Of a stretch of 64,000 nt of DNA, positions 1 to 21,466 are shown piece by piece (positions within the stretch are counted from its first letter, which is position 1; each line of letters opens with the position of its first letter). The translations under genes were made by a program, and so were the position numbers. The notes under the pieces were generated by a model. The model did no database searches and was not told the origin of the DNA. It saw nothing but the letters and a program-made list of their open reading frames with translations. Origin of the DNA: an uncultured Candidatus Saccharibacteria bacterium (lineage in GTDB: Bacteria > Patescibacteriota > Minisyncoccia > Phycocordibacterales > Phycocordibacteraceae); contig CAYUQB010000002.1 of the NCBI GenBank assembly GCA_964446735.1, positions 18,516 to 82,515 on the forward strand. The letters are read 5' to 3'.

Positions 1-462
1 GGACTCCGTTTTTTCACCGTATACGGGCGATGGGGAAGACCTGACATGGCACTCTTTAAATTCGCGCGGCGCATCGCAGCAGGGAAGCCAATAGAGCTCT
101 ATAACGCGGGACGTATGAAGCGCAGCTTCACGCATGTATCCGATGTCGTGTCAGCGATTGCAACCCTACTTACCACTCGCCCACAGGGTGCGTATCGTCT
201 CTACAATCTTGGCGGGAGCGAAGCGGTCCCGCTCTCGAAGTTTGTACGACTGATAGAAAAAGCACTTGGAAAGAAAGCAAAGATACAGGCACTCCCGCTT
301 CAACCCGGAGACGTCGCAGCAACTATCGCCGATTGCAGTCGTGCAGCTAAAGACCTTGGGTACCGTCCACATGTCTCCATCGAGGAAGGCATAGCGGACT
401 TCATTGACTGGTACCGGAAGGAAGAAGCGTTCCTGGCAACACTCGCAGAGCCAAAGCAGTAG
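1..462 (+). CDS. NAD-dependent nucleotide-sugar epimerase/dehydratase (UDP-glucuronate 4-epimerase-like), C-terminal fragment; 5' end lies upstream of window
   Basis: Frame from nt 1 reads ..FFTVYGRWGRPDMALFKFARRI.., the conserved FTVYGPWGRPDMA motif of WbpP/CapI-type SDR epimerases. Continuous ORF to TAG at 460-462. First gene of a glycan cluster. Confidence 0.7.
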   Translation, partial: GLRFFTVYGRWGRPDMALFKFARRIAAGKPIELYNAGRMKRSFTHVSDVVSAIATLLTTRPQGAYRLYNLGGSEAVPLSKFVRLIEKALGKKAKIQALPLQPGDVAATIADCSRAAKDLGYRPHVSIEEGIADFIDWYRKEEAFLATLAEPKQ

Positions 463-471
463 AATAGAGGG

Positions 472-2170: not shown

Positions 2171-2209
2171 CTTGCAGACAAAGCGTCCATCGGGCATCGT
2201 TAGAGAACT

Positions 2210-2947
2210 ATGGCATACGACGGATTGAAGGATCATTTCAATGATGTTGCGGGGGGAGCCCGCTTCTCCTCATATGAGGAGCGTCGTTGGAGTGCTGACG
2301 AGAAGCGCAAGGCACAGGAAGCGGCAACACGAAACTTTGTAACGACGCGCGCACTCCCGCAGATTACAGGCGCTAAGAACATTACCGAGCTGGGTCCTGG
2401 CCCAGGCACCTGGACGAAGTATTTGTACAATACCGCTCCGGAGGCACAGTTCCTGCTCCTTGATATTGCAGGCGAGATGCTCACGCGTGCGAAGGCAGCA
2501 CTCCCAGAAAGCGCGTCCGTCTCAACGAGGGAAGGTGACTTCGCAACCATGCAATTGGCTCCGAGTGCCGCTGATGCGTTCTTCTCAAGTCGTGCCATTG
2601 AATACGTCGCTCCTAAAGAAACTGCTGTGCAGAGTATCTACGACCACCTTGCACCAGGAGGGGTCGGTATCATCATCACCAAGATGCCTAAGCGTCTTGC
2701 TAATCAACTTTCTGGGCGCACGCCAACTGCAATTCATCAGGGCCAAATCTCGCCCGCGGCATTCAGAAAGATGCTTCAGTCAGTCGGGTTTAAGAATATT
2801 GTCCTGTATCCGGTAACGTTCTCGTTTCCGTTCCTGCGCTCAGCAGCAGCAGACCGACTACTCTCGAGTCTTTTCTCGAGTATGCCACTTAATCCAATCT
2901 CTGCACTCTTTGCGGAATCGTACGGCGTTGTATTTCATAAGCCATGA
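2210..2947 (+). CDS. class I SAM-dependent methyltransferase
   Basis: 245 aa. Gly-rich SAM motif ITELGPGPGTW and acidic loop LLDIAGEM. Stop overlaps next start (ATGA). Confidence 0.6.
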   Translation: MAYDGLKDHFNDVAGGARFSSYEERRWSADEKRKAQEAATRNFVTTRALPQITGAKNITELGPGPGTWTKYLYNTAPEAQFLLLDIAGEMLTRAKAALPESASVSTREGDFATMQLAPSAADAFFSSRAIEYVAPKETAVQSIYDHLAPGGVGIIITKMPKRLANQLSGRTPTAIHQGQISPAAFRKMLQSVGFKNIVLYPVTFSFPFLRSAAADRLLSSLFSSMPLNPISALFAESYGVVFHKP

Positions 2948-3555
2948 TCATCGAGCTCTTCGGTCTTCCGGGGGCAGGGAAAACGACGATCGCTAACGCA
3001 CTTGAGAAACAGGGCGCGATCATAGTGCGTGCACCGTCTGGGTGGCGCCTTCTCTGGGAGGCTTTTCTATTTGAATGCGCCCATCCTATACGTGCACTTC
3101 GTATAGCAATCGCAGTAGTCACCACTGCAGCCCGGGGCACCCATTACACCCTGTATGTGAACGGCTATCTCCAGTCAGCAGCGAAGTGGATACGTGCCAC
3201 GCGACTCTCTCAAGTGGGCAAGATCGCGGTCATCGATCAAGGGCACGCACAGCTGGTGGCTTCACTTGGCGGAGTGACACCAGCGACACTCGCAGCGTTT
3301 CCACGACCCAACCTACTCGCGCTCGTCGAAGCACCTCGTGAAGTACGAACAGAACGTATGCAGGCCCGTGGGCGTACGCCTCGAGAAGAGTTCGGAGAAA
3401 GCGTTGCACAGTCATGGGATGATCGTGCTGCTCGTGCAATCGAGGAAGCACTACCAGAATTCATTTCCCACTATCCCAAGGTGGTTCGAATCGTCGGCGA
3501 AGCCTCACCCGACGAGTCTGCTCGCGTTCTTCTCATTGGGCAGGCTTCTCAATAA
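2944..3555 (+). CDS. P-loop NTPase (Walker A GLPGAGKTT) of unknown specificity; kinase- or sulfotransferase-like
   Basis: N-terminus MIIELFGLPGAGKTTIANALEK is a canonical Walker A. No further family motifs recognised. Embedded in the glycan/sulfation cluster. Confidence 0.45.
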   Translation: MIIELFGLPGAGKTTIANALEKQGAIIVRAPSGWRLLWEAFLFECAHPIRALRIAIAVVTTAARGTHYTLYVNGYLQSAAKWIRATRLSQVGKIAVIDQGHAQLVASLGGVTPATLAAFPRPNLLALVEAPREVRTERMQARGRTPREEFGESVAQSWDDRAARAIEEALPEFISHYPKVVRIVGEASPDESARVLLIGQASQ

Positions 3556-4141
3556 CCGTGAGCACCCACGAGCGGGTACCATTACGAAAGACTTCTTCAT
3601 GGCCAACAAGTAATCCATAGGAAGTAAAAAGTGCTCCGTACTCGTGGGCCTCTTTTTCCGTTCGGCCGCGCGTTATTGCGGTTGAAATAAAGAGTCGACC
3701 AGAAGGCTCGAGCATGTCAGCAATACGAGAGATAAACGTACGAAAGGAATTGGGAAACCGTAAATCACCGAGATAGTAGAGCACGTCACCGAGCAGAATG
3801 AGATCGAAGCGCTGATTGAAATTGAATGTGCGAATGTTCGCCACTTCGTACGTGACATTCGAAAGATGCGAGAGTCGTTTGCGTGCTCGGGATACCGCTC
3901 GTGGTGAGAGATCGGTTGCGTGAATCGTGTCACACACGGGAGCGAGGGCTTCGGCATAGTGGCCGAGGCCGGTGCCGGCATCAAGGCACCTGCCATAGCG
4001 TCGGTCGGACAAGAGTTCTCGAGCACGTTCCACTTCTGGATTGGTATCGACTCGCCCCCACACCTGATCGTGGAGGTAGTGGTGCTCCATATTTCGCTTC
4101 TTGTGGAAGTCGAACCAGGACACAAGCAGGCGTTCAAACAT
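3533..4141 (-). CDS. class I SAM-dependent methyltransferase
   Basis: Minus-strand ORF with LDAGTGLGHYAEALA (motif I) and DLILLGDVLYY (motif II). Start chosen at Met 95 of the long ORF (nt 4141) because the longer N-terminus would overlap the divergent deacetylase gene. Confidence 0.55.
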   Translation of the reverse strand: MFERLLVSWFDFHKKRNMEHHYLHDQVWGRVDTNPEVERARELLSDRRYGRCLDAGTGLGHYAEALAPVCDTIHATDLSPRAVSRARKRLSHLSNVTYEVANIRTFNFNQRFDLILLGDVLYYLGDLRFPNSFRTFISRIADMLEPSGRLFISTAITRGRTEKEAHEYGALFTSYGLLVGHEEVFRNGTRSWVLTVIEKPAQ

Positions 4142-4195
4142 ACCGCAAGGATAGCAGGGCAGGGGTGTCGCGGAAATGATATAGTCCCTGTATCC

Positions 4196-5011
4196 ATGGG
4201 CCTGTCTGATATTCGAGCATGGCTGAAGAAGCTGGCGTATCTTCTTTCCGCGCTTCTGACGGGATTTGCACCTCCAAAAGACGGAGAGGTGGCGGTACTC
4301 ATGTATCACGCCATAGATGACTCGGGATGGCGACTTTCTGTCACCCCCAAACAGTTCGAACGTCAGATGGCGCGTCTGCGACGTCATCACGTCGTCGTCC
4401 CGCTTGCAGATATCGTTGCTCATGCAAAAGGTGAGAAGCGACTCCCTGCACGGGCGGTGGCAGTGACGTTTGACGACGGGTACGCAGATCTCATTCCGGT
4501 TGTGCTTCCCGTACTGAAAAAGTATCGGGTCCCGATGACGCTTTTTCTGAATACCGATGTATCGGTACAGACTAATTCGCTCGGTACTCCGCGCGTAACA
4601 TGGGACGACATCCGGGTTCTTGTTGAGAGCGGGTTTGTGTCAATCGAATCGCACGGAAAAACCCATGCACACCTCCCCGCACTTGAACCGTCGGTTGCAC
4701 GCGCTGAATTGGTTGATGCAGTCGATGACATCCGTGTGCATCTAGGGACCACGCCGAGCTTCTTTGCGTATCCCTTTGGGGACCGTTCCCTGGAAGTTGA
4801 GGCAATGGTCGAAGAGGTTGGCTATACGGCAGCTTTCGGCATTTCGGAAGGATTCATCGCGGAACAGGCACCGCTCTATCGCCTGCCACGTATCCAGGTC
4901 GATGCAACCATGACCCCACTCCTTTTCGCTCTCCGGCTTACACCGGCCCTCGCTATGCACCGGCGCATCGTTGGTGCCTTCCGCCGGGTTCTAGAAAAAC
5001 ATACGAAATAG
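4196..5011 (+). CDS. polysaccharide deacetylase (CE4/NodB homology domain)
   Basis: VAVTFDDGYADLIPVVLPVLKKYRVPMTLFLNT (the TFDDG Asp-Asp motif) and ESHGKTHAHL (His motif). Start at ATG 4196, divergent from the minus-strand methyltransferase. Confidence 0.7.
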   Translation: MGLSDIRAWLKKLAYLLSALLTGFAPPKDGEVAVLMYHAIDDSGWRLSVTPKQFERQMARLRRHHVVVPLADIVAHAKGEKRLPARAVAVTFDDGYADLIPVVLPVLKKYRVPMTLFLNTDVSVQTNSLGTPRVTWDDIRVLVESGFVSIESHGKTHAHLPALEPSVARAELVDAVDDIRVHLGTTPSFFAYPFGDRSLEVEAMVEEVGYTAAFGISEGFIAEQAPLYRLPRIQVDATMTPLLFALRLTPALAMHRRIVGAFRRVLEKHTK

Positions 5012-5024
5012 TAGGATTCCTAGC

Positions 5025-6689
5025 ATGCAGAGCTCAACCACCACCCAAGAAGCGCTCACAGCGCTTCCACGCATGACGCTCACCCCGCGTCAGTTATTTG
5101 ACCTTGAACAGCTCCTGGTCGGAGGATTCGCTCCGCTCACCGGCTTCCTGGGTAAGGAAGACTACGAGAGTGTTGTTGAGACCATGCATCTTGCGTCTGG
5201 GGAGCTGTGGCCGATGCCTATTGTGCTCGATGTGAGTACAGGGCATGGCCGTTCCATCGGGGATCGTGTCATCCTGTGCGACCCGTACGGAAACCCGATC
5301 GCATTCATGACGATCGAAAGTATCTACGAACCTGATAAGCAGAAAGAAGTGCTCAAGGTGTATGGAACGGATAACCCTGAGCATCCGGGGGTGCGGTATG
5401 TGCTGCAGGAAGCAGGCAATATATATCTCGGGGGGCCGGCTGAACTCATCAACCGCTCGCCCATGCATGATTTCAAAGAACTGCGTCGCACTCCGGAGGA
5501 GCTCAAACAATTCATTGCAGAACGGGGATGGGATAAGGTGGTTGCGTTCCAAACTCGTAATCCGATCCATCGTGCGCACTTCGAACTTATCTCACGCGCT
5601 GCCAGCGCACTCGGTGCAGCCGTACTCCTTCATCCGGTGGTAGGTCTCACCAAAGAAGGTGATATCGATTACATCTCTCGCGTGCGGGGATACAAACGAC
5701 TTCATGCCGCTCGTCTCTCGGATAACGGTGTACTCTCGCTGCTTCCGCTTGCGATGCGCATGGCAGGTCCGCGAGAAGCGGTATGGCACGCGCTCGTGCG
5801 CAAGAACTACGGCGCCACCCATTTCATTGTTGGACGCGATCATGCGGGTCCTGGCTCCGATTCATCTGGGAAAGCGTTTTATTCAGCGTATGAAGCCCAG
5901 GAACTTGCTAAATCCCTCGAAAATGAAATCGGTATTGGCATCGTACCCATCCATGAAATGAGTTATGTCGAGAGCGAGGGACGATATCTCTCACCCGAGG
6001 AGCTCACGCCTGAGCACGAAGTAAAGAGCATTTCGGGCACCGAGTTTCGTCGCATGCTTCGCAGTGAAGAACCGATACCGGAGTGGTTTGCATTTCCCGA
6101 AGTCATTGAGGAGCTCCGTGCCGCCATGCGTAAAGAAAAGCGTCGGGGTGCCGTCGTGTTCTTCACGGGACTTTCGGGAGCCGGGAAATCGACGATTGCA
6201 CACATTGTGTACAACCGACTCCTTGAGGAACAGGATCGTCCGGTGACGTACTTGGATGGGGATATTATTCGTCAGCATCTCTCGAAGGGTCTTGGATTTT
6301 CAAAAGACGATCGCATGACCAATATCGAGCGCATCGGATTTGTTGCGAGTGAGATCGCTAAGCATGGAGGCATTGCGGTGTGTGCGGCTATTGCACCCTA
6401 TCGCGAAAGTCGAGAGCGCAATCGACGACTCATTTCACAAGCGGGTACCTATATCGAAGTGTTCGTCGATACACCTATCGAGATCTGTGAAGAACGTGAT
6501 CCGAAGGGGTTGTATAAGAAAGCGAAGACGGGATCACTCGCTGGGTTTACCGGTGTCGATGATCCGTATGAACCACCTACGGATGCAGAGCTCGTTCTCG
6601 ATACCACTACCGAAAGCGCAGAAGAGGCAGCGATGCGGGTGCTGGCGTACCTCAAGGAGCGCGGGTTCTACGAGCACTATACGGACTAA
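5025..6689 (+). CDS. sat/cysC: bifunctional sulfate adenylyltransferase / adenylylsulfate kinase (PAPS synthase)
   Basis: N-terminal ATP-sulfurylase motifs QTRNPIHRAHFEL and GRDHAGPG. C-terminal APS-kinase motifs GLSGAGKSTIA and LDGDIIRQ. 554 aa. Confidence 0.9.
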   Translation: MQSSTTTQEALTALPRMTLTPRQLFDLEQLLVGGFAPLTGFLGKEDYESVVETMHLASGELWPMPIVLDVSTGHGRSIGDRVILCDPYGNPIAFMTIESIYEPDKQKEVLKVYGTDNPEHPGVRYVLQEAGNIYLGGPAELINRSPMHDFKELRRTPEELKQFIAERGWDKVVAFQTRNPIHRAHFELISRAASALGAAVLLHPVVGLTKEGDIDYISRVRGYKRLHAARLSDNGVLSLLPLAMRMAGPREAVWHALVRKNYGATHFIVGRDHAGPGSDSSGKAFYSAYEAQELAKSLENEIGIGIVPIHEMSYVESEGRYLSPEELTPEHEVKSISGTEFRRMLRSEEPIPEWFAFPEVIEELRAAMRKEKRRGAVVFFTGLSGAGKSTIAHIVYNRLLEEQDRPVTYLDGDIIRQHLSKGLGFSKDDRMTNIERIGFVASEIAKHGGIAVCAAIAPYRESRERNRRLISQAGTYIEVFVDTPIEICEERDPKGLYKKAKTGSLAGFTGVDDPYEPPTDAELVLDTTTESAEEAAMRVLAYLKERGFYEHYTD

Positions 6690-7519
6690 TGGGGAAGATC
6701 AAGGCGAGCGTCGGCATTCTTACCTACAACAGCGAGAAGAATCTCGCACGCGCCTTAGCGAGCGTAGCTGATTTTGAAGACATCATCATTGCTGATGGCG
6801 GCTCTACGGATAGGACCGTTTCAATCGCGGAGCAGTTCGGTGCCCGAGTTATGTCGCAATCCAATCCCGGTCACCCCATTATTGACTTTGCGAAGGAGCG
6901 CAATCGGTTGCTCGATGCGGCACGCGAGTCCTGGTTCATCTATCTCGATTCAGACGAGATCATGAGTCCTGCACTTGCTGAAGCGGTGAGGAAGATCAGC
7001 GATGACGCGCACCATTCCTACGGGGCATACCGGGTACGTTACCAGAAGACAAATGCAGATGGGACCCATCCGTATCGCACCTACCGTGAGTATTACCAGG
7101 TTCGCCTTACCCGTACCGACACCGGTGCATGCTTCGCGCGTGCCATCCATGAAGTATTGCTTGTCCCAAAAGGAATCGCTGTCGGACAGCTTGAAGCTCC
7201 GTGGTACGTGCCGCTTGAGCCAGAAGATCTTATGTTCGGACCTTTTGCCCGTAAGGCGTGGAAACGTACTGCTGGGACACTTTCTGCGTGGGAACCGAAG
7301 GGAGTAGGGAACGTGCTCACGAAGGTGGTGATCGGACCTACGACCCTCATTGGAAAGTCGCTCTGGAAGGCGTTCATGGTGAAGATCCGATACGGTAAAG
7401 ACGCCATCCCGCTTTCATATGAGCTTCTGCGCGTCGTGTACGCCCTCATGCTGTCGATCCAGGCGATTCGGCGGGTGCTGGCCGTTGGGATATGGTCCCG
7501 CCGTACGAAGGGTGGATAA
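6689..7519 (+). CDS. glycosyltransferase family 2
   Basis: N-terminal ASVGILTYNSEKNLARAL...IIIADGGSTDRT and DSDE (DxD) motif typical of GT2. Start overlaps sat/cysC stop. Confidence 0.7.
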   Translation: MGKIKASVGILTYNSEKNLARALASVADFEDIIIADGGSTDRTVSIAEQFGARVMSQSNPGHPIIDFAKERNRLLDAARESWFIYLDSDEIMSPALAEAVRKISDDAHHSYGAYRVRYQKTNADGTHPYRTYREYYQVRLTRTDTGACFARAIHEVLLVPKGIAVGQLEAPWYVPLEPEDLMFGPFARKAWKRTAGTLSAWEPKGVGNVLTKVVIGPTTLIGKSLWKAFMVKIRYGKDAIPLSYELLRVVYALMLSIQAIRRVLAVGIWSRRTKGG

Positions 7520-7528
7520 TAGCCAGGT

Positions 7529-8431
7529 ATGAATAAGATCCCTGTCATCTTCATTGTGAGTGCTGGCCACAGCGGGTCGACCTTACTCGACCTGCTGCTC
7601 TCAGCACATCCGGAGGTCGTGGGTCTTGGTGAAGCTGAGAAGATTGGAGCAAAGGTGGTACCGAAGATTCCGGAGCATCACTGTTCTTGCGGCAAAGCGT
7701 ACGATGAGTGTCCGTTCTGGGGAGACTTTGTGAAGACTCCGGAACATGTGGAATTTTTTAGTCACCGAGTCCGTCACATTCATCAGCGTAAGCTCGACTT
7801 CCTCCTGGGGAAGAAACGCTACACCTTCATAAAGCATGTCCCAGGTCCGGTGTCTCCCGAAGCCTATGTACGTAATACCGAAGCACTCTACCGCTATGCG
7901 ATCGAGCGGAGTGGAGCGAAAGTAGTCGTTGATTCCTCCAAGCGCCCGTATCGTCCTCAGGCCCTCAAAGACTACGGAGCGCTCGTTGAGCCGTACATCA
8001 TTCACCTGGTGCGTGATGGACGTGGGGTACTCTGGTCATTCCTTAAGAAGTATCGGAAACAATACCCCGGTGAGGAAGCATTCTGGACGCGGCATGCGAT
8101 TGATGAGTGGTTCGGAAGCAATCTGAAAGCAGAATTGCTCCGCATGCGTCTGGGCGCTCGTTCTAGGCGTATTCGATACGAAGATCTTGTTGCCAATCCA
8201 GAAAAGGTACTCGCCCCTGTCTTTCGCGATCTTGGCCTTGATCCAGCACTCTGGAATCCGAACTTCCGTGAAGCACCTCGTCACTACCTTGCTGGCAATC
8301 TCCCAACGATCGGATCAAGCGAAGGCATTCGTTCAGACGAAGCATGGAAAGAAAAGCTTCCGGAAGATGCTCGGCGGTTATTTACTCGGCGTGCTGGTTG
8401 GTTGAACTGGCTCTATCGGCATCTGCCGTAA
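7529..8431 (+). CDS. PAPS-dependent sulfotransferase
   Basis: 5'-PSB-like motif IFIVSAGHSGSTLL at the N-terminus and 3'-PB-like IHLVRDGRGVLWS. Immediately follows the PAPS synthase. Confidence 0.7.
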   Translation: MNKIPVIFIVSAGHSGSTLLDLLLSAHPEVVGLGEAEKIGAKVVPKIPEHHCSCGKAYDECPFWGDFVKTPEHVEFFSHRVRHIHQRKLDFLLGKKRYTFIKHVPGPVSPEAYVRNTEALYRYAIERSGAKVVVDSSKRPYRPQALKDYGALVEPYIIHLVRDGRGVLWSFLKKYRKQYPGEEAFWTRHAIDEWFGSNLKAELLRMRLGARSRRIRYEDLVANPEKVLAPVFRDLGLDPALWNPNFREAPRHYLAGNLPTIGSSEGIRSDEAWKEKLPEDARRLFTRRAGWLNWLYRHLP

Positions 8432-9572: not shown

Positions 9573-9589
9573 TACCATACCAATCACTT

Positions 9590-12150: not shown

Positions 12151-13527
12151 ATGGAAGGGCAGAGAAAGATACTATTGGTTATCTCCAAAGACGTCATCCG
12201 ACGCAACATATTAGATACGGACTTTTGGCCTTTACTGGTACAAGCAAATCCTGCTGTGCATATCATTCTAGTGGTCGAAGCAGGAAAGGGTGATATATAC
12301 CAGAAACGTTTCGCTGGGCCAAATATCACCGTGGAGGAATATGAACGAACGAACTACACGGGTCGTCTTGCTCGTCTCATGTTTTTTGCGCGTAGCGGCA
12401 TTCGTTCGAAGAGCACTACTTTTCACCGGTGGTATGCACATGCAAAAGGGCGCGCGACCCTTTCCTCCACTCTCGTAAAGAGTACGCTTTCACTAACGCT
12501 CGGTATGGCGAACCCGCTCAAGCGGCTCGTACGCAAGCGGCTTCTTGCAACACAAATGCCCGAGGCCATCGAACGCATCTTCGACGCCCATAGTCCCGAT
12601 ATCGTCTTCGCTCCTTCGCTTGTTGATAACGATTTTGATGTGTTATTTGGTATCGAAGCCAAACGACGTGGCATACGTCTTATCGGTATGGTGCGTAGCT
12701 GGGACAACCTGAATCATCATGGGCTTCTCGCCGTAATACCAGATCGGTTCCTCTTCCAGAACCGGTGGCTCGTTGAAGCAGCCAAACGCTTCCAGGCGAT
12801 TGCTACCAGAGAGATCAAAAAGGATATTGTTGGTGTCGCGCACTACGATCTGTATTGCCATCCAGAATCACATCTAAAAGATCGAGCCGCATTCTTTGAA
12901 GAAATGGGTCTTGATCCAGAGAAGAAACTACTTCTGGTCGGCGGTGCAGAGTATTACTACAGCGAAGACGAGCTTCCTTGTCGGCTTGAAGAGCTTATCG
13001 AGTCGGGGGCGATTCGCGGACGTGTGCAGGTCCTCTTTCGTCCTCATCCGAGTTCTATGTATGAAATCGAGGATTTTAAACTCGAGGGTCTCAAGCATGT
13101 GGTACTCGATGCTGGATCTCGTGTGGGGAAGACCCGTTCATTCTCAGATACCGATGCGTTCATAAATCTCCTTCACTATGCCGATGTCGTCATAAACATC
13201 TGCTCGACCCTTTCTATCGACGCCAGCACCTTCGATACACCTGCCATCGCACTCGATTATGAGGACCCCAAGAAAGGACGGGCACCGTATTGGGAGCATA
13301 TCCATCGTCTGAACGACTTCGATCATCAGGCACACCTGATTCAAACAGGTGGCGTACGAACTCCACGTTCACCTCAGGAACTTGCTGAAAACATTAATGC
13401 GTATCTAGAAAATCCTACGCTCGATAAAGAGGGAAGAAAGCGAATTATAGAAGAATTCGTAGCACCATTTGATGGACGTACTGGAGCCCGCATTGCTTCT
13501 GTTCTTACTGAAGAGATACAAAAATAA
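12151..13527 (+). CDS. GT-B-like transferase with conserved R-P-H-P motif (TagF/KpsS/bacterial sialyltransferase-like); candidate nonulosonate or glycerol-phosphate transferase
   Basis: 458 aa. VQVLFRPHPSS motif: the HP motif is shared by TagF, KpsC/S, GT30 and GT38/52/80. Two Rossmann-like halves. Confidence 0.4.
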   Translation: MEGQRKILLVISKDVIRRNILDTDFWPLLVQANPAVHIILVVEAGKGDIYQKRFAGPNITVEEYERTNYTGRLARLMFFARSGIRSKSTTFHRWYAHAKGRATLSSTLVKSTLSLTLGMANPLKRLVRKRLLATQMPEAIERIFDAHSPDIVFAPSLVDNDFDVLFGIEAKRRGIRLIGMVRSWDNLNHHGLLAVIPDRFLFQNRWLVEAAKRFQAIATREIKKDIVGVAHYDLYCHPESHLKDRAAFFEEMGLDPEKKLLLVGGAEYYYSEDELPCRLEELIESGAIRGRVQVLFRPHPSSMYEIEDFKLEGLKHVVLDAGSRVGKTRSFSDTDAFINLLHYADVVINICSTLSIDASTFDTPAIALDYEDPKKGRAPYWEHIHRLNDFDHQAHLIQTGGVRTPRSPQELAENINAYLENPTLDKEGRKRIIEEFVAPFDGRTGARIASVLTEEIQK

Positions 13528-13577: not shown

Positions 13578-14630
13578 TTACTTGGCTCGGATACGTCCGA
13601 GCTCGATGACTTTTTTCGCCACAAGGTCTGGCGCGAATGGGTAAGGGTCTTCGAAGACCGAACGACGTTGCTGTCGCATGCCCTCGAACTCATCGCGACC
13701 TAAGAAGGTGCTGCCGAGTGCACGAGGCTCGGTCACTTCGACTGCGAGGCCGGATGTGACGAGCATGTGATGCTCGGCACCCGTCTCCTCGAGAAGCACC
13801 TGGCCGATGTCTGGCGACCATGCCAGCAGGGGGACCCGGTCGCTGTGGCAGGCGACCTTAATGGCCGTGCCGCCCACAGCGAGCGTAGCGTCAGCGAGCG
13901 CGGCCAGATGATCGCTCGAGATACCCGGCAGGTGTGTGACCTTGTCCGGATACTTGCTCTCGAAAGAGGCGATCGCCTCCTCGCACTCAGCCTTGAACGC
14001 CGGTGCAGCCCCAGGGTGAAACCGAGGGATCAGCACCGTGTCAGGACTCAACCGGGCGATCTCGAGAGAAAGTTCGAGCACCGTTCTCGTGCGCGGGTTT
14101 TTATTGCCCGCTACCTGCATGATACGCCGACCCGAACTTCGGATGCTCTCGACAGCCTCCACCGCTTCTGATGATGGCTTGATGCCGACCGCATCGTCTC
14201 CCATGATGTACGCGCGCGCCGGCCGAGCCTTCTGTAGAAGTTCATGCGAGAGTGCATCGATGGTGAGGTAGAGATTTGGAAGCATGCCGGGCGATCGCCG
14301 GTTGAAGGAACCCCAGTCGTCGTCGATGAAGACGAGCGGGATACCCTCCCGCAGCGCGATTTCGCTGAGGCACAGTTCCAAGATGTTATTACCCGTACCT
14401 GGACTGCTGAGGCCAGCGACGATTACGTCAGGACGACGATCGCTGAACTGGTACGGCAGGTCGAAGGGAGTGGTTGTCTGCTGGGGTTTGAAGCCCGCAT
14501 CCTCCCAACGCTTTCGCGATGGTCCTTCGGCAGCAACCGAAATGGTCGCACCGAGGTTTTGCGCCGCGTGTGCAATCTGCACACCCAACACTGCCGGCTT
14601 CACATCGCCGGTGACGAACAGAATGTGCAC
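13578..14630 (-). CDS. GT-B-like transferase with R-F-H-P motif (paralogous class to 12151..13527)
   Basis: 350 aa. VLIPRFHPGAAP motif. Family assignment from motif only. Confidence 0.35.
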   Translation of the reverse strand: MHILFVTGDVKPAVLGVQIAHAAQNLGATISVAAEGPSRKRWEDAGFKPQQTTTPFDLPYQFSDRRPDVIVAGLSSPGTGNNILELCLSEIALREGIPLVFIDDDWGSFNRRSPGMLPNLYLTIDALSHELLQKARPARAYIMGDDAVGIKPSSEAVEAVESIRSSGRRIMQVAGNKNPRTRTVLELSLEIARLSPDTVLIPRFHPGAAPAFKAECEEAIASFESKYPDKVTHLPGISSDHLAALADATLAVGGTAIKVACHSDRVPLLAWSPDIGQVLLEETGAEHHMLVTSGLAVEVTEPRALGSTFLGRDEFEGMRQQRRSVFEDPYPFAPDLVAKKVIELGRIRAK

Positions 14631-15034
14631 GTGGCACCTCCTTCTTTCTGGCTGCTACGTTGGTCAAAATATACGCACTAATATTGCTTTTGTCAAGAAT
14701 GTATGTCATAATGAGGGCAGCCGCATTTTGCGGAAAAGGATACCCACATGACTAGAACGATTAACGTCCTCTCCCAACAGCTTCCCGTTTGGTATTTTGT
14801 CACCGGTGTATTCATAGCTCCTCGCGAAAAGCTGATCGAGTGGGTCCATAACATTGGAGCAAATCCATACAAATATCGTCTCCAAAAGATCAATTGTGTC
14901 GATATTGATAATGAACATCGACTTCGATGTTGCTCGCGAGTGGGGCGACCGTGTTTGCAAATGTCTCACCGAAGGCTGGTCGAAACGTTGAGTTTTGTAT
15001 TTCTATTGTATAAATATTTTGGCCAGACGGCCTG

Positions 15035-15733
15035 ATGGAATACACCATGGAGATCTTTGAAGACATTAAAGCCGTCTCGTTCGACTTCGACGGCGTGATG
15101 ACGCTCGACTCTGATGCGATTCATAAGAAGAATGCGTGGGGGATTGCACTTGCGGACTATCCCGGTCACGAAGAGCACGTGCGAGTTGGCAATACGCTCT
15201 ACGGCAACGGCAAGCCCGGTGGCCGTGTTGAGATCCTCCGCTACGTGCTTGAGCAGCACGGGGTGGCTGCTGACCGGATCGAGAAGGAGGTGCGGAACGC
15301 GTCCGCCGTGTTCGACGAACATGTGCAGACAAAGATCCTCGAGGATGGGCTTGTGCCCGGGGCGTATGAGATGCTCGAGACACTGCATGCCCGTGGTATC
15401 GCGCTCTACCTCAACTCAGGGACCGCGACCGCTCCCCTCCGTACTTCAGCTCGCAATCTCGGCATTGATCGATTCCTCAAGGAGTCCCTCGGGAGCACCA
15501 AGGATCCGGTAGGCGGTGGTAAAGTCGAAAATTTGACCTACATCGCTGTATCCGAAAATCTTTCGCCGAACAACATCCTCATGGTAGGGGACGGCGCTTC
15601 AGACCTGCGAGGGGCGGAACAGTTCGGCTGCCCCTTTCTTGGGGTCGCTAATCGCTGGAACGAATGGGACAAAGTCGAACAGCTTTTCCCATTCGTCACC
15701 GACCTGCGAGAGATCCCAATGCTCATTGCATAA
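15035..15733 (+). CDS. HAD-superfamily phosphatase (subfamily IA-like)
   Basis: VSFDFDGVMT (DxDGV motif I) and MVGDGASD (motif IV). Lies directly upstream of the NeuB-like synthase, so a candidate nonulosonate-9-phosphate phosphatase. Confidence 0.6.
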   Translation: MEYTMEIFEDIKAVSFDFDGVMTLDSDAIHKKNAWGIALADYPGHEEHVRVGNTLYGNGKPGGRVEILRYVLEQHGVAADRIEKEVRNASAVFDEHVQTKILEDGLVPGAYEMLETLHARGIALYLNSGTATAPLRTSARNLGIDRFLKESLGSTKDPVGGGKVENLTYIAVSENLSPNNILMVGDGASDLRGAEQFGCPFLGVANRWNEWDKVEQLFPFVTDLREIPMLIA

Positions 15734-15835
15734 GTTCGTTCGCCGGCCCGTGGGAAACCCACAGGCCACGTTCGTTCCTGAAACCCGAATACCTTGAAAA
15801 GGGTTCTAGTGAGCGTACACTGACTCTACTTTTCT

Positions 15836-16924
15836 ATGTCTATATCCACCACACTTCGCCGTTTCTTCGACCTTCTCCCGAGCCGAGTTAAAGTACAGAA
15901 CTTCTATGTCGGGGAAGGCGAGCCCGTTTTCGTCATCGCTGAGATTGGGAATAACCATAACGGTGACTTTGAGCTTGCAAAGAAGTCCATTCTCGCCGCA
16001 AAGGAATCCGGAGCCGATGCAGTGAAATTTCAGAAACGCGACATTCAGAAGCTCCTCTCAAAAGAGATGCGCGAGATGCCGTACGAGAACGAGCGTTCAT
16101 TCGGGAAGACATACGGCGAACACCGCGAGAAGCAGGAGCTTTCCAAGGAGCAGTTCGAAGAGCTCAAGCAATATTCCGAAGAGCTCGGCATGGTCTTCTT
16201 TGCGACGCCATTCGATACTGCGAGCGCAGACGCGCTTGAAGAGATCGGTGTGCATGCATACAAAATCGCATCGTTTGATGTAACGAACCTCCCGCTGCTT
16301 GAGTACGTCGCGAAGAAAGGGAAGCCCATTCTTATTTCAACCGGCGCGTCGACCCTTGAAGAGATTGATCGTGCAATCGAGACCATTCTCGCGCACAACA
16401 ACCGCCTCATCGTTAATCACTGCACTTCGTTGTATCCAACTCCAGACGAGGCAATCGACCTCAACATGGTGCGTGTTCTTAAGGAACGGTATCGTCCGCT
16501 TCCTGTCGGCTATTCCGGCCATGAGCTCGACATTCTTCCCACACTCGCATCCATCGCACTTGGCGCCAGCACAGTTGAACGTCATTTCACGGTTGATAAG
16601 AAACTGCACGGATCTGATCACCACATGTCCATTGAACCTGCTGAGTTTAAGGAGATGGTTGAAGGCATCAAGCGTATGACCAAGATTATGGGTGCTTCGG
16701 AAAAGCGTATCCACGACGCCGAGCTTCCTATCCGTGCAAAGCATGCAAAGAGCATCGTTTCTGCGGTAGATATTGAGGAGGGGGCCCTCATCACCAAAGA
16801 AGCCATTGCCTTTAAAAGTCCGGGCACTGGCATCAATCCCTCACATATAGAAATGGTTGTCGGGAAGCGCGCAAAGGTCGCTATTCCTGCTGATACTGTT
16901 ATTCAGGAATCCTTCCTCGGCTAG
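15836..16924 (+). CDS. neuB: N-acetylneuraminate (nonulosonic acid) synthase family protein
   Basis: FVIAEIGNNHNGDFELAKKSILAAKESGADAVKFQ and HCTSLYPTP...GYSGHE match the NeuB/PseI/LegI TIM-barrel. C-terminal SAF-like domain. Confidence 0.8.
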   Translation: MSISTTLRRFFDLLPSRVKVQNFYVGEGEPVFVIAEIGNNHNGDFELAKKSILAAKESGADAVKFQKRDIQKLLSKEMREMPYENERSFGKTYGEHREKQELSKEQFEELKQYSEELGMVFFATPFDTASADALEEIGVHAYKIASFDVTNLPLLEYVAKKGKPILISTGASTLEEIDRAIETILAHNNRLIVNHCTSLYPTPDEAIDLNMVRVLKERYRPLPVGYSGHELDILPTLASIALGASTVERHFTVDKKLHGSDHHMSIEPAEFKEMVEGIKRMTKIMGASEKRIHDAELPIRAKHAKSIVSAVDIEEGALITKEAIAFKSPGTGINPSHIEMVVGKRAKVAIPADTVIQESFLG

Positions 16925-18195
16925 CTCGCGCGTCGCGCAAATACGACCCACTGACCAAGTTGTATCGAAAGTCGTGCAAGCGACAGCACGATCCGACTAC
17001 CGACCGCACCCCATACGCCATAGAGCGGGATGGTAATAAGAAGTGAGCCAATATAAACCAACTGTGGGACGGGTCGTAGGTAAAGCCAGGAGACAGGAAG
17101 CGCATTCAGTTTTGATTCAACTACCGAGCTAAGGAAAGTAAGCGGGAGTTGCAGTACCAGGGTGACTGCAAGCATCTGTGAGAATGAAATCGACGCAAGA
17201 TACTTCGGGAAGAGAAGCGTGTAGACATAGGGTGCGATGAACGCATACAAGAGCGCAACGACGCCGCCAACCAAGAAGAGTTGCACGATGCGCATTCGGA
17301 AGATGCTTACGATTTGCCGCACGTTACGGTTTGCGAGTCGAGGCGTCGCAATGGCAGGTACGTTGTTGTACAGTCCAAGGATCTGATCAATAGGAGCACG
17401 GGCAAATGCATACTCAGCCACCTTCACTGGACCCAAGTAGTGGAAGAGAAGAAGTGAATCGAGGTAGGAACCTACCGTACCCACGATGTCCGTAAGACTC
17501 AGGTGCTTTCCGTACCGAAGCGTTTGCGATTCTGTATCCTCATTCGGAGGCATGCTTTTGAGTACACGCCGCAGGAAGATGAGATTAATGATAGTGAGTG
17601 AGGCATAGTACGCGACAAGAATAGGAATGAGTATCGGGAAAAAGAATGCAACGCCAACCAGGATCGGCACATAGAAAAGTCGCTGGCCGATCGAATAAGC
17701 AACCGAAGTCTTAAAGAGGCGCTTGGCTTGCAGATAGATTTGGTAAATACCCAGTGGTTGCGAAAAGGGAATGAATGGCGCAACCGCGAGAAATGCAAAC
17801 CCAAGCTGTTCGTTACCATTAATGAAGTAGTACGCGGAGAGTGCGAAGCCGGCGACCATGCCAGCGAGTCCCCATCGTATGCGCGTGTAGAGGCCTTCCT
17901 TTAATGATCCTTCGATGCCGCGCGCGATTGCTTGCGAGAGAGCTGTATTAATTCCTCCCAAGGTGGGAATCGCGAGGATGCCGACTGCCGATAGTACGAA
18001 TTTGTAGGTGCCGTAGGTTTCGGGAGCGAGCAGGTTCGCAAATGCGATCGCGAGTAGGAATGATGCGAACGATGCTGCAACCTGGCCAACCGCGAGCCAA
18101 AAGCCGCTTGTGGTGAAGTACACCATGTCGGTTTTGGTATAGCGTTCGGTGGCGCGCAGCAGTGAAAACAGAGCGGTTTTGAAGCGTAAAAGCAT
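16921..18195 (-). CDS. polysaccharide/oligosaccharide flippase (Wzx-like polysaccharide biosynthesis protein)
   Basis: 424 aa, highly hydrophobic multi-TM minus-strand ORF with the Wzx/RfbX-type pattern. Convergent 4-bp overlap with neuB stop. Confidence 0.6.
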   Translation of the reverse strand: MLLRFKTALFSLLRATERYTKTDMVYFTTSGFWLAVGQVAASFASFLLAIAFANLLAPETYGTYKFVLSAVGILAIPTLGGINTALSQAIARGIEGSLKEGLYTRIRWGLAGMVAGFALSAYYFINGNEQLGFAFLAVAPFIPFSQPLGIYQIYLQAKRLFKTSVAYSIGQRLFYVPILVGVAFFFPILIPILVAYYASLTIINLIFLRRVLKSMPPNEDTESQTLRYGKHLSLTDIVGTVGSYLDSLLLFHYLGPVKVAEYAFARAPIDQILGLYNNVPAIATPRLANRNVRQIVSIFRMRIVQLFLVGGVVALLYAFIAPYVYTLLFPKYLASISFSQMLAVTLVLQLPLTFLSSVVESKLNALPVSWLYLRPVPQLVYIGSLLITIPLYGVWGAVGSRIVLSLARLSIQLGQWVVFARRAS

Positions 18196-18268: not shown

Positions 18269-20416
18269 ATGAACACCGCCATGTTTACCCAGGCAGCCCG
18301 TTGGACTGCTCTTGCCGCTCTTTTTGTCATTCCGTTTATCCCACTGTATGTGGCAAATGACCTGTTTTTCCCCTTCATTACCGGGAAGGGATTCGCGTTT
18401 CGTATTCTCGTTGAACTAGCAGTTGCGGGGTATGTCATTCTTGCGTTGGTGAATCGGGCGTATCGTCCGAAGTTTTCCTGGATTTTCGTCGCTTATGGTG
18501 CCTTCATTGCATGGATGCTCGTTGCCGCTCTTGCGGGGACGAATCCCCACAAAGCCCTCTGGAGCAATTTCGAACGCATGGAAGGGTGGGTCATGCTCGC
18601 TCATGTATTTCTCTTTTTCCTAGTTTCGGGAGCAGTTCTCACTACGGATAAGCTCTGGCGTACCTGGTGGTTGACGTTCATTTCAGCTTCAGCCCTTGTT
18701 GCAGGGTATTGTGTGATTCAGTTGCTTGGTGGTGCACCTATTCATCAAGGTGGTGTACGCGTGGACGGGACCTTTGGAAACGCGGCGTACCTTGCTTCCT
18801 ATCTTCTTTTTGCAATCGCTATCTCACTCTGGCAGGCACTTGCCTCAAAGGGATGGCTTCGCTATGTCCTCTTCGCGCTCGCGTTCGTGCAAGTAGTTAT
18901 TGTCTTCTTCACCGCTACTCGCGGCGCTATCTTGGCATTGGTAGGAGCTGCACTCGTTGGCTCTTTGCTCTGGGCGTTTGAATCGGGAAAGAAAAGTCGG
19001 AAGATCGCACTGGCGGTAGTGGTGGGTATCGTGGTGATCGCAGGTACGTTCTTCCTTGCGAAGAGCACGCCATTCATTGCGAATGATCCTACGCTCTCTC
19101 GCATTGCTTCTATCGGACCTAAGGATCTTACGGTGCGCTTCACGCTCTGGAGCATGGCAGGGGAGGGAATTATGGAGCGACCCATTACGGGATGGGGCCA
19201 GGAAGGTTTCAATTACATCTTCAATGAGCACTACCGACCCTCGCTCTTTGCACAGGAGCCATGGTTCGACCGAGCGCACAATGTGTTTATCGATTGGCTT
19301 GTTGCCGGTGGTATTCCAGGATTCCTCCTGTTTCTTGCCACGTTCATGATGGCGATTTACGCACTGTATCGGGGAAATGCTCCCCGTGAAGAACGAGTGC
19401 TTCTACTTGCAGCGCTCGCCGCGTACGGCATTCAGGCGATGGTCGTATTCGATCATATCTTCACCTATGTACCGCTAGCGGCCATCCTCGCAACTGCGCA
19501 TGCCGCTTCTGCTCGACCGTGGAAGCGTGTCGAAGAAGCACCAACCATCAGTGAGTCGAATATCCAGATCGTGGCGCCGATCGTGCTCGCCGGAGTACTC
19601 GTGATTATGTGGTTCATCAACGTACCAAACATCGTTGCCGCGTCTTCCCTTGTTCGCGCAATTGGAATCTCCGGAAGCGACATCACGCAGAATGTTCTTC
19701 TCTTCCAAAAGGCTCTGAACCAAGGAAGCTTCGGCCAACAGGAAGTGCGGGAACAGCTCCTCATGTTTACGAATAACATTGCATTCGCGCAGGGTCACCC
19801 GTCACCTGCACTGACACAACTCCAAACCTACGCACTTGCTGAAATGGGTAAGGAGGTCGAATCGCAACCGAAGGATGCACGCTTGCGTCTTCAGTATGCG
19901 CTTGGATACCGTGTCGCGAGCGACTATCCCAATGCACTCAAGCAGATTGAGATAGCGCACGAGCTTTCCCCGAAGAAACAATCCATCTTGATTGAGCTCG
20001 GCTTCAATCACTGGCAGATGGGGCAGTACGAAAAGGCGCGCGACGCATTCCGGCAAGCATATGAGCTCGATCCTTCTTTCGACCAGCTGGCTCCGTATCG
20101 AGGAGCAGGTGATATCATTGCGGGCGATTTGGCAGGAGGAAAGGCGTTTCTTTCGGAGCGGCTTGGTACAACCACAAGCGTGAACGAAGCACTCATCCTT
20201 GCGTACTACCAGGCACGTGCATTCCCAGACCTGATCCGTTGCCTTGAAGAGCAGCTCCGCGCTCAGAATGGTGCAATGGATGCATATTTCAGGCTTGCGG
20301 CGGCGTACACCGCTGCGGGGAATCCAGTTCGTGCTCGTGCCATAGTCCAGGAGGGTCTCGCTAAGCATCCTGAAGCCGCTGCACAGGCTGCCGAGTTTCT
20401 CTCCCACGTGAAGTAA
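18269..20416 (+). CDS. O-antigen ligase (Wzy_C)-like polytopic membrane protein with C-terminal TPR repeats
   Basis: N-terminal 400 aa are about 10-12 TM helices with the FTATRGA / periplasmic-loop pattern of O-antigen ligase-like proteins. C-terminal 250 aa are TPR-like (AxxxYxxAL repeats). Confidence 0.55.
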   Translation: MNTAMFTQAARWTALAALFVIPFIPLYVANDLFFPFITGKGFAFRILVELAVAGYVILALVNRAYRPKFSWIFVAYGAFIAWMLVAALAGTNPHKALWSNFERMEGWVMLAHVFLFFLVSGAVLTTDKLWRTWWLTFISASALVAGYCVIQLLGGAPIHQGGVRVDGTFGNAAYLASYLLFAIAISLWQALASKGWLRYVLFALAFVQVVIVFFTATRGAILALVGAALVGSLLWAFESGKKSRKIALAVVVGIVVIAGTFFLAKSTPFIANDPTLSRIASIGPKDLTVRFTLWSMAGEGIMERPITGWGQEGFNYIFNEHYRPSLFAQEPWFDRAHNVFIDWLVAGGIPGFLLFLATFMMAIYALYRGNAPREERVLLLAALAAYGIQAMVVFDHIFTYVPLAAILATAHAASARPWKRVEEAPTISESNIQIVAPIVLAGVLVIMWFINVPNIVAASSLVRAIGISGSDITQNVLLFQKALNQGSFGQQEVREQLLMFTNNIAFAQGHPSPALTQLQTYALAEMGKEVESQPKDARLRLQYALGYRVASDYPNALKQIEIAHELSPKKQSILIELGFNHWQMGQYEKARDAFRQAYELDPSFDQLAPYRGAGDIIAGDLAGGKAFLSERLGTTTSVNEALILAYYQARAFPDLIRCLEEQLRAQNGAMDAYFRLAAAYTAAGNPVRARAIVQEGLAKHPEAAAQAAEFLSHVK

Positions 20417-21466
20417 ATGACGGTGCGGCAGGAGGTACCCCTTGCCCAACTAACTACCTTTAAGGTAGGTGGCCCCGCTCGGTTCGTGTGTGCAATCGAG
20501 TCGGAGACTGACCTCATATCCGCGCTCACGTTCGTCCGGGAGCAGAATCTACCTTTTGTAATCCTGGGTGAAGGAAGCAATATTCTCCCTCCTGATGAGG
20601 GGTATTCAGGCGTAATTCTTCTGATGCGGATTCCTGGCATAACGTTCGAGGATCAGGGCGAGTATGTCCGTGTTGCGGCTGGAGCCGGAGTTGTCTGGGA
20701 TGATCTGGTGTCTGCATGTGCTGACCGAGGTCTCTGGGGAATTGAGAACCTTGCCGGTATTCCAGGAACTGTCGGAGCTGCACCGGTACAAAATATTGGA
20801 GCATACGGTGCCGAAGTGAAGAACGTTATTGAAAAAGTCATCGCGTACGACGTACGCGAGAATCAGTACCGCACACTGCAAAATGCCGAGTGCGGATTTT
20901 CATACCGAGACAGTCGCTTCAAGCATGAACCACAGCTCATTATCGTGACTGTGACATTCCTCCTTGCTAAGACAGGAGTGCCGCAGGTCGAGTACAAAGA
21001 TCTGATTGCAGTGCGTGAGACGGGGGGGGATCTTTCTGCGCCTGGAGCCATTGGCTCAGCGGTACGGGAGATACGGGCACGGAAATTCCCAGATCTTAGA
21101 GAGTTCGGAACCGCAGGATCCTTTTTCAAGAATCCCATTCTCACTCAAGAGAAATACGATCAGCTTTCTGCTACCTATGCCGATATCGCAGGGCCCTTAG
21201 GCGGCATTCCACGGTATCCCATGCCTGGTGCAATCAAAATACCGCTCGCCTTTATTTTGGATAAGGTGCTTGGAATGCGTGGTCATCGTCGTGGCCCGAC
21301 ATTTCTTTTTGGTAATCAACCGCTGGTACTCGTTGCTGATCAAGAAGCAACCGCACGTGATATCGATGCACTTGCACGCGAAATTGAAATGCGAGTACAT
21401 GATGCAACGGGCATCACCATTGAACGTGAAGTGCGTAATCTTACATCACACGAGAGCACTGCGTAA
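20417..21466 (+). CDS. murB: UDP-N-acetylenolpyruvoylglucosamine reductase
   Basis: FAD-binding LTTFKVGGPARFV...ILGEGSNIL, NLAGIPGTVGAAPVQNIGAYG, and C-terminal MurB domain. Start ATG immediately after upstream TAA. Confidence 0.85.
   Translation: MTVRQEVPLAQLTTFKVGGPARFVCAIESETDLISALTFVREQNLPFVILGEGSNILPPDEGYSGVILLMRIPGITFEDQGEYVRVAAGAGVVWDDLVSACADRGLWGIENLAGIPGTVGAAPVQNIGAYGAEVKNVIEKVIAYDVRENQYRTLQNAECGFSYRDSRFKHEPQLIIVTVTFLLAKTGVPQVEYKDLIAVRETGGDLSAPGAIGSAVREIRARKFPDLREFGTAGSFFKNPILTQEKYDQLSATYADIAGPLGGIPRYPMPGAIKIPLAFILDKVLGMRGHRRGPTFLFGNQPLVLVADQEATARDIDALAREIEMRVHDATGITIEREVRNLTSHESTA

Follow-up and report, generated by a model that had tools for sequence, protein, structure and literature searches.

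We analyzed a 64,000-nt stretch of DNA (hereafter the window), which opens on a dense island of glycan genes; the analysis of this locus covers bases 1-21466. Open reading frames (ORFs) tile this part nearly gap-free, and the ORF map agrees with the gene calls made independently on two Logan contigs, which encode identical proteins. Besides a 3'-phosphoadenosine 5'-phosphosulfate (PAPS) synthase, a sulfotransferase, a nonulosonic acid (NulO) module and genes for export, the island holds two family 4 glycosyltransferases (GT4), one family 2 glycosyltransferase (GT2), five S-adenosylmethionine (SAM) methyltransferases (one FkbM, one NodS-like), one CE4 deacetylase, a small P-loop kinase, a borderline PhyH-like protein and two proteins without annotation. 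Features lie on the plus strand unless the minus strand is given. All genes named in an earlier note on this DNA were found in place, scoring above family thresholds in profile searches.

The 3' end of the island lies at about 20.4-21.5 kb, where MurB, a peptidoglycan precursor reductase (20417-21466; FAD_binding_4 and MurB_C), forms a housekeeping border and is followed by SecA, Obg and GatB, and the 5' side runs past the window edge. The gene order Wzy_C-TPR, secA, obg, gatB is common to the window and to the Paceibacterota genome GCA_035627655.1. The homologues of the sulfotransferase, of NeuB and of a 458-aa protein described below carry names that are almost all from Kaiserbacteria, Paceibacterota, Adler-, Sung-, Buchanan-, Colwell- and Nomurabacteria or Saccharibacteria, lineages of the candidate phyla radiation (CPR). 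Together with the 63-66% identity of the PAPS synthase to Kaiserbacteria and Paceibacterota genes, these findings point to a CPR member of the Paceibacteria/Parcubacteria type. No tRNA was found in the window.

The nonulosonate module and its truncated cytidylyltransferase

The earlier note had placed a NeuB-family synthase and a HAD phosphatase at 15035-16924, which was borne out. The synthase, at 15836-16924 (NeuB 274.6 bits, SAF 33.7 bits), is a phosphoenolpyruvate (PEP)-condensing nonulosonate (or nonulosonate-9-phosphate) synthase of a large CPR-wide clade, with homologues named from Paceibacterota, Kaiser-, Adler-, Sung-, Buchanan- and Colwellbacteria. It scores below the equivalog cut-offs for both N-acetylneuraminate synthase (TIGR03569, 333.6 vs. 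399.65 bits) and PseI (TIGR03586, 255.8 vs. 340.25 bits). In an alignment to Neisseria meningitidis NeuB, twelve positions that bind metal or PEP or take part in catalysis do not vary among 120 clade members (E25, K53, Q55, T110, K129, S132, S154, S213, H215, E234, H236 and D247). Arg314 of N-acetylneuraminate synthase, at which the PDB entries 4IPI and 4IPJ are mutants, contacts the N-acetyl group; its equivalent in the window protein is Ser328, and serine occupies the position in 105 of the 120 clade members and arginine in none. The substrate of this NeuB is probably not N-acetylmannosamine, and its sugar would not be classical N-acetylneuraminic acid (Neu5Ac).

The HAD-superfamily phosphatase (15047-15733, or from a start at 15035; PF00702 71 bits, HAD_2) has the motifs DFDGV at residue 17 and GDGASD at 185, and orthologues that are 50% identical stand at the same position in the related loci L082 and L086. 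The protein reached no NCBIfam equivalog cut-off, the best being phosphoglycolate phosphatase at 43.8 vs. 225 bits, and its conserved adjacency to NeuB makes it a candidate NulO-9-phosphate phosphatase. Comparison of NeuB and HAD with the PDB revealed no substrate specificity.

Three syntenic relatives share with each other the order ~456-aa unannotated protein (a TagF-like GT-B enzyme), CTP_transf_3, HAD (a cupin in L083/84), in some cases a methyltransferase, then NeuB, GT47, Wzy_C-TPR and secA. The window NeuB is 76% identical to that of L082, 78% to that of L086-88 and 66% to that of L083/84, and in all three the CTP_transf_3 gene, encoding the CMP-NulO synthetase, is intact. The Wzy_C-TPR orthologues of L082, L083 and L086 are 36-49% identical, syntenic and likewise upstream of secA. 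Since the relatives carry the TagF-like glycosyltransferase, CTP_transf_3, HAD and NeuB, and since one member of the NeuB clade is a CTP_transf_3-NeuB fusion, the NulO module is an ancestral feature of the island. Neither an aminotransferase nor a recognisable NeuC was identified in the module. By analogy with the synthesis of 2-keto-3-deoxynononic acid (KDN) in Bacteroides and of sialic acid in animals, the route most likely runs via a 9-phosphorylated intermediate, and a KDN-like product made from a hexose-6-phosphate is our best guess.

The relatives differ in detail. At 1-5371 of L082 there is a second NeuB, fused to a cupin with a faint Lyx_isomer match, and a second HAD, together with a GFO/IDH/MocA oxidoreductase, a PQ-loop protein and a fusion of PK, PUA_2 and ATP-sulfurylase domains. 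The cupin of L083/84 (L083 9463-9918) holds the position of HAD in the other relatives, and it may produce the aldose substrate by a route that lacks a phosphorylated intermediate.

In the window the cytidylyltransferase is truncated. With the L082 enzyme as query, tblastn found only residues 162-215 (14763-14924, 76% identity) and, in another frame, residues 212-231; a six-frame search of the whole 64 kb with a hidden Markov model (HMM) of four orthologues matched only model positions 169-242, at the same remnant, and revealed no second CMP-NulO synthetase copy. The remnant (14763-14973, inside a 95-codon ORF at 14748-15035) comprises the last ~70 codons. In the DNA alignment homology begins at about 14760, and a one-base insertion near 14914 shifts the frame. 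The missing ~160 codons are the nucleotide-binding part of the enzyme, and they were lost to an inserted, oppositely oriented GT-B gene (13578-14630, minus strand, 350 codons), which has a strong AAGGAGG Shine-Dalgarno sequence ahead of a GTG start. The inserted segment has a GC content of 60-64%, against ~50% in its flanks. Because neither inverted repeats nor a transposase were found around the insert, there is no evidence that an insertion sequence element was involved.

One 14-kb Logan contig spans the whole arrangement of insert and remnant, and a contig from a second sample, SRR8426593 (L091), shares the left junction up to an adapter-contaminated end. At 3797-3822 the latter contig carries the Illumina adapter sequence AGATCGGAAGAGCGTCGTGTAG, so that its last ~25 bases are an artefact.

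The remnant is 86% identical in amino acids to the L086 enzyme. The proportion of non-synonymous differences is low (pN 0.08) and synonymous sites are saturated (pS ~1), which is no worse than between two intact orthologues. Because the remnant has few non-synonymous changes and NeuB and HAD are without decay, the truncation is either recent relative to the divergence of the lineages or compensated. The earlier note had also proposed a search for a CMP-NulO synthetase; within 64 kb this gave only the 3' stub in the locus and no intact copy. With the cytidylyltransferase truncated and frameshifted, and with no second copy in the 64 kb, incorporation of NulO in this strain does not follow from the genes and is doubtful: unless a cytidylyltransferase is encoded elsewhere in the genome, NulO is probably no longer added. 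Of the sulfated, O-methylated nonulosonate glycan that the earlier note had envisaged, sulfation and methylation are supported, and the nonulosonate part is supported only in part.

It is possible, if rather doubtful, that NulO is nevertheless part of a sulfated, methylated glycan in this strain, CMP activation being supplied by a cytidylyltransferase whose gene lies outside the window. NeuB and HAD are intact and neither has lost a catalytic residue, the candidate transferase at 12151-13527 is intact as well, NulO genes can be duplicated in relatives (L082), and the remnant is without excess non-synonymous change. Against this, all that is left of the cognate gene at its conserved position is ~70 codons with a frameshift, the 64 kb hold no other copy, and CPR genomes are small and rarely redundant.

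The candidate transferase is a 458-aa protein (12151-13527) whose place directly upstream of the cytidylyltransferase is conserved in the relatives. It has about 70 (73) mostly CPR relatives, many with PF04464 (Glyphos_transf). PDB and Pfam sequence searches with the protein gave marginal matches only, its profile matched TarL in the PDB marginally (E 0.006), and its AlphaFold model (predicted local distance difference test, pLDDT, 95) has a GT-B fold with an invariant R-x-H-P motif. The fold search did not separate it from 2-epimerases. In NCBIfam it matches NF046086, the BFO_1060 family, at 34.4 bits vs. a cut-off of 200, and the match is limited to the conserved C-terminal domain; BFO_1060/Tanf_01245 proteins are Tannerella forsythia transferases of pseudaminic and legionaminic acid (Pse/Leg) derivatives (PMC5420450). 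We somewhat favour a TagF-like CMP-NulO transferase over a NeuC-like epimerase as the identity of this protein.

A NeuC/LegG-like hydrolysing NDP-sugar 2-epimerase feeding NeuB, which would make the module a classical neuC-neuA-neuB set plus phosphatase, is the less likely alternative. No Epimerase_2 Pfam match was found in the 458-aa protein or is recorded for its 73 relatives, the NCBIfam match is to the Tannerella Pse/Leg-transferase family and the profile match is to TarL. The R-P-H-P motif of the protein is also typical of CMP/CDP-dependent GT-B transferases. Moreover, the inserted gene at 13578-14630, of unrelated function, gets the same epimerase top matches, so that these look like generic GT-B matches.

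The inserted gene itself encodes a second, shorter (350-aa) protein of an uncharacterised family with 182 representative homologues. It had no Pfam match and nothing usable in PDB sequence searches, and its AlphaFold2 model (pLDDT 93.5) again has a GT-B fold. A profile comparison with hhalign identifies it as a remote homologue of the 458-aa family (probability 98.9%, E 1.9e-17), with which it shares the R-x-H-P motif.

Sulfate activation and the sulfotransferase

The earlier note's proposal of a PAPS synthase beside a PAPS-type sulfotransferase held for both genes. The PAPS synthase (5025-6689), a fusion of ATP sulfurylase and adenosine 5'-phosphosulfate (APS) kinase (Sat/CysC), scores 769 bits against the NF004040 cut-off of 669, contains the PUA_2, ATP-sulfurylase and APS_kinase domains, and has intact catalytic motifs (QTRNPIHRAH at 176, GRDHAG at 270, GLSGAGKS at 382 and LDGD at 410). 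The sulfotransferase (7529-8431) is the only copy in the window. It matched only PF13469 (Sulfotransfer_3, 57.3 bits vs. 27) and PF00685 in Pfam, and it scores 17.7 bits against the NoeE cut-off of 500 and is not a member of that family. Its two PAPS-binding motifs, the 5'-phosphosulfate-binding GHSGSTLL and the 3'-phosphate-binding VRDGRG..S, are conserved across 32 homologues, in which G16, S17, T18, R162, D163, G164, R165 and S170 are invariant. Sulfotransfer_3, NeuB and FkbM, the three families for which the earlier note had suggested HMM annotation, were all supported.

The stop codon of the PAPS synthase overlaps the start of a GT2 glycosyltransferase (6689-7519; Glycos_transf_2 67.9 bits), and the sulfotransferase and then a GT4 glycosyltransferase (8436-9572; Glyco_trans_1_4 79.8 bits, Glyco_transf_4) follow within 10 bp of each other, so that the sulfotransferase sits between GT2 and GT4 in one tight gene run. 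To place this arrangement among its relatives, 80 loci encoding related sulfotransferases were fetched and their 10-kb flanks searched with the window proteins. Of 12 CPR loci, 7 have sulfate-activation genes within 10 kb, vs. 4 of 67 loci in other phyla (Fisher p = 7e-5). In four CPR loci (L005, L009, L016 and L022) a full Sat-CysC gene from Kaiserbacteria or Paceibacterota, 63-66% identical to that of the window, follows the sulfotransferase after 60-114 bp, with Wzx and Wzy_C-TPR genes nearby. The syntenic islands of the relatives carry other sulfation genes than the window, namely an ATP-sulfurylase fusion and Sulfotransfer_2 in L082 and a CTP_transf_like-APS_kinase protein in L086. The window ORFs that were scanned contained no family of PAPS/APS reductases or of sulfite reductases. 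Given the recurrent pairing in CPR, the other sulfation genes in the L082 and L086 islands, the lack of an assimilatory reductase in the scanned ORFs and the gene packing, a PAPS supply dedicated to glycan sulfation appears to be the best reading.

The genomic context, with GT2 and GT4 as neighbours, speaks for a carbohydrate as the candidate acceptor of the sulfotransferase. That the enzyme instead modifies a protein tyrosine, a lipid or a small metabolite is quite improbable: among solved structures it comes closest to the CurM/OLS polyketide sulfotransferases (E 3.5e-8) and, over the N-terminal motif only, to tyrosylprotein sulfotransferases, and acceptor specificity is not readable from sequence, but the gene lies between GT2 and GT4 in one run, a homologue of the GT4 at 8436-9572 occurs within 10 kb in 14 of the 80 related loci, and in the CPR loci the sulfotransferase gene is flanked by Wzx or Wzy_C genes. 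Highly improbable is a PAPS synthase that serves assimilatory sulfate reduction and adjoins the sulfotransferase incidentally, for although Sat/CysC enzymes function in general sulfur assimilation in many bacteria and the NF004040 equivalog model does not tell the two roles apart, assimilatory reductase families are missing from the scanned ORFs, the adjacency recurs and is enriched in CPR genomes, and the gene is translationally coupled to GT2 inside a glycan operon.

Between the two PAPS-binding motifs, at residues 52-64, the sulfotransferase has a near-invariant C-x-C-G-K...C-x-F-W motif (C52, C54, C61 and W64). The motif is not known from characterised sulfotransferases and could be a metal or disulfide site. 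A further lead was dropped: homologues from Sinorhizobium that are ~31% identical had been considered as the characterised lipopolysaccharide (LPS) sulfotransferase LpsS, but LpsS is annotated as an enzyme of a different family, Stf0 (PMC12445080).

Near the sulfotransferase, a Methyltransf_25 gene overlaps a small P-loop kinase-like gene in the window (2210-3555) and also at 8058-10268 of L003 and 1293-3857 of L030, which come from one gammaproteobacterial and one Patescibacteria metagenome-assembled genome (MAG). This suggests a conserved tailoring trio of methyltransferase, kinase and sulfotransferase. In the complete genome of a Woesearchaeota (DPANN) archaeon (L010; CP060219.1) the 10-kb surroundings of a sulfotransferase homologue include a NeuB homologue (39% identity), an APS kinase and Wzx, and in a Desulfotignum MAG (L006) NeuB is also near the sulfotransferase; the combination of sulfation and NulO therefore recurs outside CPR.

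Further genes of the island and comparison with known systems

At the 5' edge of the window lies the 3' part of a NAD-dependent sugar-nucleotide epimerase/dehydratase (1-462), cut by the window edge with its frame open from base 1; it has Epimerase and GDP_Man_Dehyd C-terminal matches and an RmlB/GalE-type resemblance below cut-off. It is followed by the first GT4 glycosyltransferase (472-1539; Glycos_transf_1 73.9 bits), which is also called on Logan contig L001, and by two SAM methyltransferases, one of the Methyltransf_11 type (1631-2170, 54 bits; start from the L001 gene call) and one of the Methyltransf_25/11 type (2210-2947, 51 bits). The latter is the methyltransferase that also adjoins P-loop kinase and sulfotransferase in L003 and L030. 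The small P-loop kinase-like protein (2944-3555), whose homologues adjoin the sulfotransferase in both of these loci, matches AAA_18 and AAA_33 barely over cut-off (30 and 28.6 bits).

A NodS-like SAM methyltransferase (3533-4141, minus strand; Pfam NodS 58 bits), a candidate N-methyltransferase, stands back to back with a CE4 polysaccharide de-N-acetylase (4196-5011; Polysacc_deac_1 91.7 bits) that resembles PgaB, IcaB and NodB below their cut-offs. Downstream of the second GT4 are an FkbM-family methyltransferase (9569-10468; TIGR01444 84.7 vs. 37.7 bits), with orthologues 46-48% identical in L082 and L086, a further Methyltransf_11 protein (10465-11232, 36 bits) and a possible, borderline PhyH-like Fe(II)/2-oxoglutarate oxygenase (11229-12125, minus strand; PhyH 21.9 bits vs. 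22; a 298-aa gene call from L090). Beyond NeuB, the Wzx and ligase-like genes of the earlier note were recovered as a Wzx-type flippase (16921-18195, minus strand; Polysacc_synt 59.4 vs. 28.2 bits) and a Wzy_C-domain membrane protein with C-terminal TPR repeats (18269-20416; Wzy_C 71.7 vs. 31.7 bits), which may be a polymerase, a ligase or an O-oligosaccharyltransferase.

The part from 3533 to 8431 resembles the rhizobial Nod tailoring system (NodPQ, NodH, NodB, NodS and NodC) in that the same classes are clustered, with the PAPS synthase beside the sulfotransferase and CE4 by the NodS-like protein, plus a GT2. The window proteins nevertheless fall under the Nod equivalog cut-offs (NodS 82.7 vs. 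300, NodB 27 vs. 240, NoeE 17.7 vs. 500 bits). In addition, the PAPS synthase is a Sat-CysC fusion whereas NodPQ is of the CysD/CysN type, the GT2 is small and of soluble type, and the product would be exported by Wzx/Wzy_C from a CPR bacterium instead of serving as a rhizobial lipochitooligosaccharide signal.

NulO pathways with phosphorylated intermediates are known in Bacteroides, for KDN, and in animals, for sialic acid (PMC6200933). Like the Bacteroides thetaiotaomicron KDN set (KDN-9-phosphate synthase, phosphatase and CMP-KDN synthetase) and the animal Neu5Ac set (NANS, NANP and CMAS), the window has a NeuB-type and a HAD protein, and its relatives have CTP_transf_3 as well; the differences are the truncated cytidylyltransferase here and the relative with a cupin instead of HAD. 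The window HAD has a C1 cap (HAD_2 type). Animal NANP is likewise C1-capped, whereas the Bacteroides KDN phosphatase is capless and KdsC-like. N. meningitidis NeuB and Campylobacter PseI belong to the same NeuB plus SAF fold family and share the catalytic residues with the window NeuB, which differs from them by its scores under both equivalog cut-offs and by the serine at the Arg314 position.

The 458-aa protein is like T. forsythia Tanf_01245/BFO_1060 and TagF/TarL in its size of ~450 aa, its GT-B fold, its HP motif and its place by the CMP-NulO synthetase, but the matches are weak (34 bits vs. 200; TarL E 0.006), and the comparison concerns how the protein may work and not membership. Finally, Wzx/Wzy loci for O-antigen or capsule and PglL/PilO-type O-glycosylation systems likewise have Wzx and a Wzy_C protein flanking glycosyltransferase and tailoring genes. 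Unlike in those loci, the Wzy_C protein of the window has a long TPR tail and a fixed site near secA, and neither a separate Wzy/WaaL pair nor a chain-length regulator was found in the window. CPR bacteria are not known to have LPS. Decoration of the giant protein or an S-layer, which the earlier note had raised as a possibility, is speculative, the one hint being that the Wzy_C family also includes protein O-oligosaccharyltransferases. Because the specific equivalog cut-offs are not reached, the locus would work like these systems and is not placed in any of them.

A probable variable surface-glycan island in a CPR bacterium

From gene content we infer the following route. The two GT4 enzymes, the GT2 enzyme and one or both of the TagF-like GT-B proteins would assemble a lipid-linked oligosaccharide in the cytoplasm, which the CE4/NodS-like pair would de-N-acetylate and probably N-methylate. 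The other methyltransferases would add O-methyl groups, the P-loop kinase and possibly the oxygenase would also tailor the glycan, and the Sulfotransfer_3 enzyme would O-sulfate it with PAPS made locally by the Sat-CysC fusion. Wzx may then flip the product, and the Wzy_C-TPR protein may polymerise it, ligate it or transfer it to its final acceptor. The ancestral NulO branch would have consisted of the NeuB-family synthase, the HAD phosphatase, the CMP-NulO synthetase and the TagF-like transferase.

We consider it fairly probable that bases 1-21466 are a variable cell-surface glycan island of a Paceibacteria-type CPR bacterium, seated at a conserved site upstream of Wzy_C-TPR and secA-obg-gatB, with dedicated sulfation and with the NulO branch probably off; a sulfated, methylated glycan is its likely product. 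Several points weigh against this. NeuB and HAD are intact with nothing to suggest decay, non-synonymous changes in the remnant are few (pN 0.08), and L082 carries two NeuB and two HAD genes. Our view is limited to 64 kb of the genome, so that an intact CMP-NulO synthetase may lie elsewhere. Within the window no initiating phosphoglycosyltransferase was found, and neither a sulfate transporter nor a 3'-phosphoadenosine 5'-phosphate (PAP) phosphatase was seen. The sequence of the sulfotransferase does not reveal an acceptor, the nearest solved relatives being remote polyketide and tyrosine sulfotransferases. All of the chemistry is predicted from genes, and the NCBI MAG and the Logan contig possibly derive from the same reads.

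A tailored surface-glycan cluster is a known kind of locus, and it is the lineage that is unusual; what is added here is the CPR-enriched pair of sulfotransferase and PAPS synthase and the strain-specific truncation of the NulO-activation gene. The co-occurrence of sialylation and sulfation has been reported in environmental extracellular polymeric substances (PMC10483923). Our literature search found no paper that links CPR to sialic acid synthase, nonulosonic acid or sulfotransferases. A far-reaching extension, which is unlikely to hold in full, is that Paceibacteria-type CPR as a group make a sulfated, methylated glycan with a non-aminated, KDN-like cap, by way of the Ser-for-Arg314 NeuB clade, a 9-phosphate and new TagF-like HP-motif transferases. 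The Wzy_C-TPR protein would attach this glycan to pili, S-layer or giant adhesins, and pressure from hosts or phages would lead individual strains to gain or lose the cap through gene disruption at this island, of the kind seen here.

Two other regions of the window were noted. From 46000 to 64000 the GC content falls from ~53% to ~42%, and phage-family ORFs lie next to a glyceraldehyde-3-phosphate dehydrogenase gene: AAA_24 (46236-47423), Phage_rep_O (47468-48025), ParB_N with an N6_N4 DNA methylase (48881-50110), an SU10 portal (52396-54420) and an SU10 adaptor (57946-58575). The region resembles a prophage, or else a segment of phage or chimeric origin. A giant ORF of 4937 aa (28397-43210) matched only a C-terminal Bact_surface_Ig-like domain and, at residues 15-58, an excisionase-type helix-turn-helix (HTH_17); a 268-aa ORF just upstream (26852-27658) also has HTH_17. 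Either the giant ORF may have been given a wrong start, or an HTH gene may have been duplicated or fused.

CPR/Patescibacteria live attached to host cells, and their surface chemistry is little known. The locus and its relatives suggest that these genome-reduced bacteria keep a private supply of PAPS, apparently just for the sulfation of surface glycans, and that many of them keep a compact nonulosonate module. The analysis singles out three enzyme families that lend themselves to testing: the NeuB clade with serine at the Arg314 position, the HAD phosphatase that accompanies it, and the GT-B proteins with an HP motif, in two families. Glycan remodelling at the level of the strain has a concrete example in the truncated cytidylyltransferase. 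Together, sulfation and nonulosonic acids would give strongly anionic, host-like surfaces, which bears on attachment, on phage receptors and on immune and host recognition.

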